A stretch of DNA of 45,276 nucleotides, taken from the NCBI GenBank assembly GCA_947624455.1, contig CANQKL010000001.1:1-45276 (forward strand), read 5' to 3'. Under the pieces are notes generated by a model. The model saw only the letters and a program-made list of their open reading frames with translations, ran no database searches and was not told the origin of the DNA. Both the position numbers and the translations under genes were made by a program. Numbering within the stretch: position 1 is the first letter of the stretch; each line of letters starts with the position of its first letter. The DNA comes from an uncultured Clostridia bacterium (GTDB lineage Bacteria > Bacillota > Clostridia > UMGS1883). Shown here one piece after another: positions 18,077-44,699 of this stretch.

Positions 18077-18077
18077 G

Positions 18078-18170
18078 CCGCGCAAAAGTACGCAAAATAA
18101 AAGTTGTTGCGACAAACAACGCCGAAGGCGTTTACGAAGTTTTGGAAATATGATAAATTGTGTTGTTGCG
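18078..18170 (+). repeat. Dispersed intergenic repeat, family A, copy 1
   Basis: About 93% identical to 40194-40287. Contains hairpins gttgtt..aacaac and aacgcc-gaa-ggcgtt. Confidence 0.85.
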
Positions 18171-19185: not shown

Positions 19186-19815
19186 ATGGAAAAGAAGATC
19201 GCAAAGGCGTTGCTGTCCATCGGGGCGGTATTTCTGCGGCCGGAGCAGCCCTTCACCTGGGCCAGCGGCATTAAAAGTCCCATTTACTGCGACAACCGCC
19301 TGACCCTGACCGCTCCCGAGGTGCGCACACAGGTGGAGGAAGGGCTTGCGGAGGTTATTCGGGCCAACTATCCCGACGTGGAGGTACTGATGGGAACCAG
19401 CACCGCCGGTATCGCCCACGCCGCCATCACAGCCCATCTCATGGGTCTGCCCATGGGCTATGTCCGCAGCGGGGCCAAGGATCACGGCCGGGCCAATCAG
19501 ATAGAGGGCAAGCTGGAGCCAGGGCGGAAGGTAGTCGTGGTGGAAGATCTTATTTCCACCGGCGGCAGCGTGTTAGAGGTGGTAAAGGCCCTTCGTGAGG
19601 CGGGGGCGCAGGTGCTGGGCATCGCCAGCATATTCACCTATGGCATGAAGAAGGGGCTTGAGCGGCTGGCCGAGGCCCAGGTAAAGAACGTCAGCCTTTC
19701 CAATATTGACGCGGTAGTTCAGGTCGCCGCGGAGGACGGCTATATCAAGGCCGAGGACGGGGCGAAGATATTGAAGTTCCGGGATAATCCCAGCGACGAG
19801 AGCTGGATAAAGTAG
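19186..19815 (+). CDS. pyrE: Orotate phosphoribosyltransferase
   Basis: PRPP-binding loop [13 protein letters not shown]; Firmicutes-type PyrE N-terminus and length. Confidence 0.9.
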
Positions 19816-19840: not shown

Positions 19841-19985
19841 CCATTTACCGTAAATGGAATATTGCGGGCGGCCAATGGCCGCCCCTACGGAATCAAGGCC
19901 ATATTTGCGGCCAATTAGCACATTTACGTTCCATTCCCCCGTAGGGGCGCGCATTGCGCGTCCGCATACACAAATTTACGGTACG
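19841..19985. repeat. REP-like doublet (family B): two GTAG+palindrome units, head to head
   Basis: Reverse unit gcgggcggccaatggccgcccCTAC (19864-19888) and forward unit GTAGgggcgcgcattgcgcgtccgc (19941-19965), flanked by (A)TTTACG motifs. Confidence 0.7.
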
Positions 19986-36771: not shown

Positions 36772-36928
36772 GCATCGGGCGCTTTCGCTTACGAAATATT
36801 GGTTTTGTCATGACAAAACCAATATTTCTACCCCGATTATAGTATAAAATCCCGGGTACACGCCCCGGGATTTTATGTTTTTATCGAAAGGGAGTTCCCT
36901 TTCGAGCTTTCCCCATCGTGCATAGGGT
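36772..36928 (+). repeat. Composite multi-hairpin repeat, family C, copy 1 (contains a canonical terminator module)
   Basis: Collinear with 44552-44699. Modules: palindrome 36795-36826; aaaatcccggg-tacacgc-cccgggatttt plus T-run (36847-36882); tcgaaaggga-gt-tccctttcga. Confidence 0.85.
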
Positions 36929-36946
36929 TTGCCAGCAGCCTGATAC

Positions 36947-37013
36947 AATCCCGGGTACACGCCCCGGGATTTTATGTTTTTTATCGAAAGGGGGTTCCCT
37001 TTCGAGCTTCCCT
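36947..37013 (+). repeat. Family C partial copy (tandem duplicate of the terminator and third-hairpin modules)
   Basis: aatcccgggtacacgccccgggattttatgttttttatcgaaagggggttccctttcgagcttccc is nearly identical to 36848-36913. Confidence 0.85.
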
Positions 37014-39302: not shown

Positions 39303-39641
<339 letters not shown>

Positions 39642-39645
<4 letters not shown>

Positions 39646-39671: not shown

Positions 39672-39813
39672 CGCGGGCAAAGGTATTTGGGATAGTATTT
39701 GCCGTGACGTTTGACGTAAAATTTGCGATAATTAATTTTATAATCGTTACTGTAAACGGAATTGCGGGCAATGAAAACCCCACAAACAACACGTTTATGG
39801 TTCCCCACCCTCC

Positions 39814-39838
39814 GTAGGGGCGGCCATTGGCCGTCCGC
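39814..39838 (+). repeat. REP-like unit (family B)
   Basis: GTAGgggcggccattggccgtccgc. Confidence 0.7.
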
Positions 39839-39928
39839 CATTTAACGTTTACGGTGAAAATTATGAACATTATTATGGGAAACATTTGCGCAAAATGTAT
39901 AAAATTATTAAAATATAGCCTTGATATC

Positions 39929-39953
39929 GTAGGGGAGCGCATTGCGCTCCCGC
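39929..39953 (+). repeat. REP-like unit (family B)
   Basis: GTAGgggagcgcattgcgctcccgc. Confidence 0.7.
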
Positions 39954-40016
39954 GACCCGTAAGCACGGCAAAAATCAAGCCTGCCATCGTATAAGCGACC
40001 AACCCCAGGGGATTTT

Positions 40017-40040
40017 TAAGGGGAACCGCAGTTCCCCTTA
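40017..40040. repeat. GGGGAAC..GTTCCCC hairpin (family D)
   Basis: taaggggaac-cgca-gttcccctta. Related hairpins lie at 44508-44539 and 19823-19838. Confidence 0.55.
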
Positions 40041-40193
40041 AACGCCCTAGGGGGTCCGGGGGAGCGTCGTCGCAAGCTCGGTTCGCTTGTTTCGATTTGG
40101 GAAATCGAAACGTGGCTCACCTCGCTGCTCCTCCTTTTCCCCACAAAATCGGCTTCGCCGTTTTGCGGGGTACCCCTGCTTTTGGTACTTTTG

Positions 40194-40287
40194 CCGCGCA
40201 AAAGTACACAGAAATAAAAGTTATTGCGACAAACAACGCCGAAGGCGTTTACGAAGTTTTGGGAATATGATAAATTGTGTTGTTGCG
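40194..40287 (+). repeat. Dispersed intergenic repeat, family A, copy 2
   Basis: About 93% identical to 18078-18170. Its 5' end lies in the 10-bp hairpin gtacttttgc-cgc-gcaaaagtac (40185-40207). Confidence 0.85.
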
Positions 40288-40327
40288 TCTAATGATTTAG
40301 TCTCAAAATTACTGTAAATCTGTGTAG

Positions 40328-40352
40328 GCGGACGCGCAATGCGCGCCCCTAC
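40328..40352 (-). repeat. REP-like unit (family B), reverse orientation
   Basis: gcggacgcgcaatgcgcgcccCTAC is the reverse complement of the unit at 19941-19965. The downstream spacer is homologous to 19889-19940. Confidence 0.75.
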
Positions 40353-40480
40353 GGAATCCAGGTTACATTTATCGTGGATTACCATATTTACGTTCCCTTT
40401 CCTCCATGGACCATACCGCCCGTGAATCAAATTCCACGCACAAAGGGCCGCCCGGCGGCGGCCCTTTATTACTTATTGCG

Positions 40481-41962
<1,482 letters not shown>

Positions 41963-44551: not shown

Positions 44552-44699
44552 GCATCGGGCGCTTTCGCTTACGAAAATTTGTCTGCGGACAAATTTTCTA
44601 CCCCGATTAAGGTATCAAATCCCGGGTACACGCCCCGGGATTTGATGTTTTCTATCGAAAGGGAGTTCCCTTTCGAGCTTTCCCCCTCGTGCATAGGGG
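44552..44699 (+). repeat. Composite multi-hairpin repeat, family C, copy 2
   Basis: Collinear with 36772-36928. The first hairpin has a different sequence (aaaatttgtc-tgcg-gacaaatttt) but is still a hairpin. Confidence 0.85.

Follow-up and report, generated by a model that had tools for sequence, protein, structure and literature searches.

GTAG-tagged palindromes that accompany RAYT genes have been described in detail (PMC3733652, PMC3333891). The transposase TnpA-REP cleaves at CT or CA dinucleotides located 5′ and 3′ of the hairpin, with GTAG serving as the guide. In Stenotrophomonas maltophilia, the REP is a 23-nt unit with a perfect 8-bp stem and a 3-nt loop, and it is cleaved by the organism's own TnpA-REP (PMC8266576). 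The GTAG is contacted in E. coli TnpA-REP by W94, Q95, E100, H101, and R104, and replacement of the glutamate at the E100 position by an aspartate has been reported for subclasses 2.5 and 2.7 (PMC6006769). REPs located inside tnpAREP genes have already been published (Quentin et al. 2018, PMC6006769). Domesticated RAYTs are present as one copy at a fixed locus and descend vertically, and their repeats dwindle after the gene is lost (PMC5581495). REP/RAYT systems have so far been worked out almost wholly in Proteobacteria. RAYT group 1 has been mentioned in Clostridia in passing (Bertels et al. 2017, PMC5581495), and in a limited literature search we found no REP family in Clostridia described in the GTAG-REP survey and phylogenomic work (PMC3733652, PMC6006769). 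Here we characterize such a family, together with its cognate gene, from gut Clostridia.

The stretch of DNA analyzed (the window) comprises 45,276 nucleotides and represents contig C1 of a Clostridia MAG of 1.83 Mb (251 contigs, 53.6% G+C, 91% complete). A first-pass annotation had listed five GTAG units in the window and had called them REP-like, on the basis of a GTAG followed by a palindrome. The pattern GTAGGGGNGNNCATTGNNCNNCCGC matches exactly at these five sites, with the same coordinates and strands as in that list, and finds 0 matches in 100 dinucleotide-preserving shuffles of the window. The units start with GTAG, continue with one arm of an 8-bp G+C-rich stem, an ATT loop of 3 nt, and the second arm, for a total of 23 nt, and are followed by GC. 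The GTAG abuts the stem in all five window units and in 22 units genome-wide. In a GTAG-tagged REP, GT[AG]G precedes a stem-loop at a distance of 0-2 nt, the basal stem measures 7-20 bp, and the loop has 2-5 nt; the window units conform to this architecture. Three stem types are found in the window (GGGCGGCC/GGCCGCCC, GGGCGCGC/GCGCGTCC, and GGGAGCGC/GCGCTCCC), which differ from each other by compensatory changes; in the first type, the return arm of GGGCGGCC reads GGCCG[C/T]CC. A TTTAC[G/A]G motif is conserved 9-10 nt 3′ of most hairpins. We also considered TTTACG as a promoter element and rejected it, the one weak TTTACG-17-TATTAT match being no better than chance.

All five window units lie outside credible genes. 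Stop-to-stop frames are uninformative for intergenic location at 54% G+C, and we used Pfam matches of the neighboring genes. Two units are flanked by a pyrE-type phosphoribosyltransferase gene (19186-19815) on one side and by the end of a ParE-toxin operon on the other. The left unit (19844-19892, core 19864-19888, minus strand) has a CGGCC stem and the right unit (19937-19985, core 19941-19965, plus strand) a CGCGC stem with a G:T wobble. Both match the pattern exactly, score 62.9 and 62.0 bits, respectively, with our covariance model, and carry TTTACGG 9 nt 3′ of the hairpin. Their GTAG tags face inward across a 52-nt spacer, an arrangement known as a 'TT' dimer in Di Nocera's nomenclature. 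The inverted pair at 19841-19985, earlier described as a REPIN-like doublet, is not the canonical doublet of the family, which has GTAG outside; the GTAG-inside arrangement is found only at this window site. The neighboring segment 19812-19850 has the pyrE stop codon within GTAGGGATCGCGGGGAATATGGTTCCCTGCCATTTACCG, which comprises GTAGGG, a weak 5-bp hairpin, and TTTACCG, and may represent a degenerate unit facing the one at 19864-19888.

The other three units are found between the RNase P RNA (39308-39644) and the IMP dehydrogenase (IMPDH) gene (40481-41935), and all match the pattern exactly. The first (39810-39858, core 39814-39838, plus strand; CGGCC stem with a G:T wobble, also detected by self-BLAST and the covariance model) and the second (39925-39974, core 39929-39953, plus strand; AGCGC stem, 45.7 bits) form a head-to-tail pair with a spacing of 115 nt. 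The 25-nt core of the second unit is identical to a unit inside the RAYT-class ORF on contig C63 described below. The third unit (40308-40356, core 40328-40352, minus strand; CGCGC stem, 66.0 bits, also seen by self-BLAST) is inverted with respect to the second, with ~375 nt of other repeat families in between. No Rfam family covers the units, the only Rfam matches in the window being the RNase P RNA and an S10 leader.

We analyzed covariation in a set of 25 different 25-mers taken from this and the congeneric genomes, in which all varying positions are free (N) in the search pattern. Stem cells are paired in 97.5% of cases, as opposed to 81.8% after shuffling and 36-55% after sliding of the 3′ partner, and both sides change in three of the eight stem pairs, adding to the 8-bp stem and 3-nt loop in favor of the REP-like character first assigned to the units. 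The third stem pair is G:C in 13 variants, G:T in 12, and mismatched in none. As these G:T wobbles occur on the GTAG strand, the hairpin forms best on that strand, which may hint at strand-specific recognition by TnpA-REP.

Genome-wide, the strict pattern finds 17 units, and allowing ≤1 mismatch yields 20. A covariance model built from 18 units detects 22 copies on nine contigs. Together with the strict pattern, it replaced a loose fuzzy search (4 substitutions plus indels), which returned thousands of meaningless matches. The number of 22 is a lower bound because several units sit at contig ends (within a few hundred bases on C50, C81, and C38), and the true copy number is probably higher; units of this kind break short-read assemblies of these MAGs. 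The copy number is nevertheless low when compared with the hundreds found in E. coli or Pseudomonas. A ~140-nt head-to-tail module (39812-39953 in the window) recurs on C86, C81, and C38 with 83-86% identity over 142-146 nt, and one canonical GTAG-outside doublet is present in this genome (C86:3515-3651). In the window, self-BLAST against the genome resolves the segment 39954-40327 into a mosaic of three other hairpin-rich repeat families. The first (40001-40062) has at least eight copies, the second (40064-40184) ~30 copies genome-wide, and the third (40178-40300) is 96% identical to window positions 18077-18170. The block 40064-40177 represents an insertion, since it is missing from an otherwise collinear copy on C50. 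Elsewhere in the window, a ~60-nt segment (aatcccgggtacacgccccgggattttatg...tcgaaagggagttccctttcgagctt) is present twice, ~100 nt apart, after rplQ (36845-37010).

A Pfam Y1_Tnp search of the genome returned two places, on contigs C112 and C63. The C63 match is weak (18.4 versus a gathering score of 23) and corresponds to a 169-aa ORF, P0001, located between purM and purN. Its best NCBIfam model is REP-associated tyrosine transposase (NF047646, E 4.7e-16), with IS200 at E 0.11. The score of 59 bits is below the equivalog cut-off of 80, and by this measure P0001 is a distant member of the class and no equivalog of the proteins modeled by NF047646. Among PDB sequences, only 4ER8, the E. coli TnpA-REP in complex with a REP hairpin, is matched (E 1e-4). 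The AlphaFold model of P0001, calculated with 54 homologues (pLDDT 86, pTM 0.81), likewise has 4ER8_A as its top Foldseek match (E 3.7e-8, TM 0.56-0.58), with the TnpA enzymes of ISDra2 and IS608 ranking lower. P0001 contains an HUH motif (H86-I-H88) and the class-2 signature Y148-x3-N152-P153; H86, H88, Y148, and N152 are invariant among the 54 homologues and P153 is nearly so. Residues W127, Q128, D133, H134, and R137 align with the GTAG-contacting W94, Q95, E100, H101, and R104 of the E. coli enzyme. P0001 has an intragenic REP in common with subclass 2.4; its short REP and its aspartate at the E100 position are features of subclasses 2.5 and 2.7.

The gene is present in a single copy, as judged by tblastn, and is accompanied by units. 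Three tandem units are located upstream, the nearest 33 nt from the ATG, and one exact unit is found on the antisense strand of the ORF itself, immediately following the HUH motif. In the reading frame of P0001 this unit appears as GGG AGC GCA ATG CGC TCC CCT AC and encodes GSAMRSPT. In that frame, the other two stem types would encode GRAMRAPT and GRPMAAPT, and these peptides are found at that position in homologues. The layout with units flanking the gene (REPtron) occurs on C63 and also in the congeneric genomes G003, G004, G009, and G010. We considered whether the units are decayed fragments of the RAYT-class gene and rejected this, as tblastn matches cover only the 8-12 hairpin-encoded residues and the flanks have no match. 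Between the gene and purN (L002:1205-1458), a hairpin-rich cassette of ~170 nt, which contains tttctaccccgat, has been inserted where purN starts. A direct duplication of 43 nt, comprising the ribosome-binding site and the first 10 purN codons, borders the insert, and the insert is absent in congeners. The cassette looks like a member of the family found at 36772-36928 and 44552-44699 in the window. As to the GTAG units, we consider it likely that they are REP-type elements and the recognition sites of the RAYT-class (TnpA-REP) Y1 HUH transposase encoded on C63.

The second Y1_Tnp match, on C112, bears on another origin of the units. The first-pass annotation had likened them to PATEs of the IS200/IS605 family, with TTTAC(G) as a bracketing, IS608-like TTAC target. 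The units would then be non-autonomous derivatives moved by a classical TnpA via a TTAC-type site, as in IS608, and both the recurrence of TTTAC(G) near the units and the one classical IS200 tnpA on C112 (E 1.4e-42) would be consistent with this. However, the C112 element has unrelated end hairpins and no GTAG units, and is located on a short AT-rich contig. The TTTACGG motif is found between the two hairpins of the standard doublet, away from its boundary, and copies diverge at GTAG/CTAC. In addition, the units match the RAYT-class gene and not the IS200 gene. We thus regard a PATE-like origin as extremely unlikely, and neither the likeness nor the proposed target site withstood the comparison. 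The IS200-type tnpA itself (C112:1289-1765, L001) encodes 158 aa and lies beside a 407-aa ORF on a contig of 3.2 kb, whose composition is unlike the rest of the MAG and which may be a mobile element or a binning contaminant. A search of the genome for the Cas12f1-like_TNB domain of a TnpB/IscB-type partner gave no match above the cut-off.

We compared 11 genomes of the genus, this one and those of 10 other species, counting units with ≤1 mismatch. With the RAYT-class gene present, we found 20 units in this genome (G000), 41 in G003, 42 in G009, and 50 in G010. G004, whose gene copy has an in-frame stop, contains eight. The gene was not found in G001 (86% complete, eight units), in G007 (two units), and in G002, G005, G006, and G008 (no units each). 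A reversed-pattern control returned 0 in every genome. Within the genus, the unit count tracks the RAYT-class gene. In all five genomes having the gene, it is located in the purM-purN gap, and in G000, G010, G003, and G009 its stop codon and the start of purN overlap. The gap was checked in four of the six genomes in which the gene was not found (G001, G002, G006, and G008), and there purM and purN are separated by 0-80 nt, representing the empty site. Protein identity among congeners is 80-96% for purM and purN, compared with 57-88% for the transposase. By analogy, the genus pattern is that of domesticated RAYTs. The genus provides a natural experiment, with some genomes having the gene and others not, an empty site between purM and purN, and unit counts that follow the gene.

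The units themselves are located at sites that are variable among these species. None was found downstream of pyrE in the 10 congeners, all of which conserve pyrE, and the DNA 3′ of pyrE differs in each of them, leaving no aligned empty site for the window pair. Synteny breaks at the intergenic sites of the other window units as well, and for none of the five did we find an orthologous site that is cleanly filled in one genome and empty in another; two G003 doublets likewise have no alignable empty site. These comparisons bear on the three outcomes that, according to the first-pass annotation, would have refuted its reading: only these few copies in the genome, no Y1-transposase or RAYT homologue in the genome or clade, and confinement of the units to one region by local duplication. 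None of them was obtained, given the 22 covariance-model copies on nine contigs, the RAYT-class gene on C63 with three units upstream and one inside, and the up to 50 units in congeners with counts that follow the gene.

The genomic positions of the units could also be taken to indicate that they are primarily host RNA or DNA elements under selection, such as mRNA-stabilizing or terminator-like hairpins or protein-binding sites, with an incidental likeness to REPs. The location of units at the 3′ ends of transcription units, after pyrE and the RNase P RNA, is in line with this, and REPs elsewhere have been put to such use (PMC3733652). Yet the hairpins are not followed by a T-tract, the units occur in both orientations relative to neighboring genes, and they are missing in 4 of the 10 congeners searched despite the same flanking genes. 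An exact copy within the transposase ORF is also difficult to reconcile with a host element. We therefore find a primary host function very unlikely; as a secondary use, for example in stabilizing or terminating the pyrE or RNase P transcripts, it can coexist with units that would serve as REPs of the RAYT-class enzyme.

We found more than 900 homologues of P0001 in metagenomes, some of which are named 'REP element-mobilizing transposase RayT' in IMG. Genome records assign them to Oscillospiraceae, Acutalibacteraceae, Ruminococcaceae, Ruminococcus flavefaciens, Gemmiger, Fonticella, Anaerosolibacter, and a few other phyla. Homologues with 33-57% identity contain, at the same place and on the antisense strand, a GTAGG(G) followed by a 7-9-bp hairpin with a quite different stem. 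The CTAC of this intragenic unit occurs in two reading frames, and the encoded peptides vary (GRAMRAPT, GGDGTPPL, KRAIRESPL, and DHIGSPL). Most such genes contain a second unit at about codon 42, this time in sense orientation, where it is read as V-G-x5-P. Both inverted units are present in 62 of 95 near-full-length genes, with starts 146-186 nt apart. The paired units are 92% identical within a gene (25 of the 62 pairs are identical), compared with 50% between genes, and 35 different stem arms are found among the intragenic units. The unit finder used here has a background of 79 matches on reversed and 36 on shuffled sequence, versus 232 on real sequence. Because stems, frames, and peptides differ while the hairpins stay, the intragenic hairpins are conserved at the nucleic-acid level, with the two members of a pair evolving in concert. 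In the model of P0001, the segment encoded by the second unit along the gene (residues 96-106) forms a loop between the HUH strand and the next helix. The report of REPs in tnpAREP genes by Quentin et al. 2018 means that an intragenic hairpin is not new in kind; we found no description of paired, concertedly evolving intragenic hairpins in our limited literature search, and this is a feature that should interest specialists.

Dispersed hairpins match the gene-internal hairpins of the same genome in three lineages. Gemmiger formicilis DFI.6.10 has 43 dispersed copies of GTAGGGCGGGGTGACCYCACCCCGCC, its gene-internal variant (control, 0), and Fonticella tunisiensis has 40 copies of its own GCGAAC variant, mostly around the gene. 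In the genus analyzed here, the commonest types in G009, CGCCC and CGGCC, are those beside and inside its own gene, and the constant AGCGC arm in G003 is the arm of its own gene. Most genomes with a more distant homologue contain the intragenic pair only and few or no dispersed copies. As several homologue genomes have no dispersed copies at all, expansion is occasional. It is possible, and we suggest it only tentatively, that the inverted in-frame pair bracketing the HUH-coding segment is an ancestral master copy rather than an accidental insertion, from which families bud off repeatedly. Enzyme and site would then co-evolve as one unit, which would explain the 92% likeness within genes and why dispersed REPs carry the stems of their own gene. 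REP families would have arisen separately in this genus, in Gemmiger, and in Fonticella, and the intragenic hairpins might allow the protein to regulate or rearrange its own gene.

The commonest arrangement in congeners is an inverted doublet of ~137 nt with GTAG at the outer ends, in which two hairpins of different stem types, with starts 112-113 nt apart, enclose an A+T-rich spacer. In four G003 doublets, the flanks diverge directly outside GTAG/CTAC, and these positions thus represent the ends of the repeated unit. Doublets in G003 and G009 are also part of an element of 209-215 nt (211 nt in G003), whose terminal inverted repeats are imperfect (ends GAGCTTGTCGA... and ...TCGACAGTCTG; loci L154-L156 and L032-L048, e.g. 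L154:1134-1440). Its copies are 90-98% alike, and from this similarity they look like recent insertions. In eight of the nine copies, a complete terminator-like hairpin of the insertion locus is directly duplicated at the flanks (19-29 nt, different at each site), and a target duplication of hairpin length suggests structure-guided staggered cutting or template switching. As a Y1 HUH enzyme is unlikely to leave hairpin-sized duplications, part of the spread may have occurred by another route.

These duplications raise the question of whether the hairpins spread mainly by duplication or as passengers of MITE-like cassettes, which another enzyme, for example a DDE transposase, would move, with the RAYT-class protein at most binding the hairpins without mobilizing them. 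The footprint of eight of nine elements in G003 and G009, unexpected for Y1 HUH transposition, speaks for such a route, as does the presence of window units in mosaics with three other repeat families. It is at odds, however, with the four G003 doublets that lack the outer inverted-repeat flanks and whose own flanks diverge exactly at GTAG/CTAC, and with this genome, from which the outer flanks of the element are wholly absent. It also leaves unexplained why the dispersed stems are those inside the genome's own RAYT-class gene and why unit counts track that gene. We thus consider spread mainly by this route unlikely. In a REP/RAYT system, the C63 enzyme would act like its counterparts from E. 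coli, Stenotrophomonas, and Marinomonas and bind the hairpin on its GTAG strand. GTAG may serve as both tag and guide, with single-stranded DNA being cut and rejoined beside the GTAG hairpin, and over time units and doublets would spread into intergenic sites.

The window units are part of a REP/RAYT system in a Clostridia genome, so that a type of system known mostly from Proteobacteria is now also found in gut Clostridia. Cultured hosts are available (Gemmiger formicilis DFI.6.10, Fonticella tunisiensis DSM 24455, and Ruminococcus flavefaciens), and the ~35 stems, each with its own enzyme variant in the same gene, form a series for studying how TnpA-REP reads stem sequence.

Among described systems, the REPs of S. 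maltophilia (RAYT group 3, subclass 2.5) share with our units a GTAG at the foot of an 8-bp stem, a 3-nt loop, and a length of 23 nt. In both systems, the Y1 HUH gene is present once and has its own REPs beside it (REPtron), an aspartate occupies the position equivalent to E100, and single units are found as well as dimers, whose GTAG tags are outside, inside, or in tandem. Unlike in S. maltophilia, the host is no proteobacterium but a Clostridia (Oscillospirales-type) gut MAG, copies number in the tens and not in the hundreds, the left and right hairpins of a doublet differ in their stems, and the gene is located in the pur operon with its stop overlapping the purN start. An intragenic REP is shared with subclass 2.4 (Bertels RAYT group 4, Cyanobacteria and Bacteroidetes; PMC6006769). 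However, the hairpins described here are short and not of the long or 'double foot' type, most family members have two intragenic units, inverted and located at about codons 42 and 105, and both evolve in concert within the gene. With the REPINs of Pseudomonas fluorescens and E. coli (Bertels and Rainey 2011), the family has in common inverted REP doublets with a conserved spacer (~137 nt, in congeners), a vertically inherited, single-copy RAYT gene at a fixed locus, and unit numbers that fall where this gene is missing. It differs from them in that the doublet arms have different stems and hence form no simple long hairpin, and in that the window pair is of the GTAG-inside type with a 52-nt spacer. 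Finally, the Y1 HUH fold of the enzyme is shared with the IS200/IS605 family (IS608, ISDra2, and their PATE derivatives), and so, by analogy, would be hairpin recognition on one strand and a 5′ tetranucleotide guide. In contrast to these, the gene is not located between left-end and right-end hairpins of the same orientation, the element boundary has no TTAC-type flank, and P0001 is closer to TnpA-REP than to IS200 TnpA.
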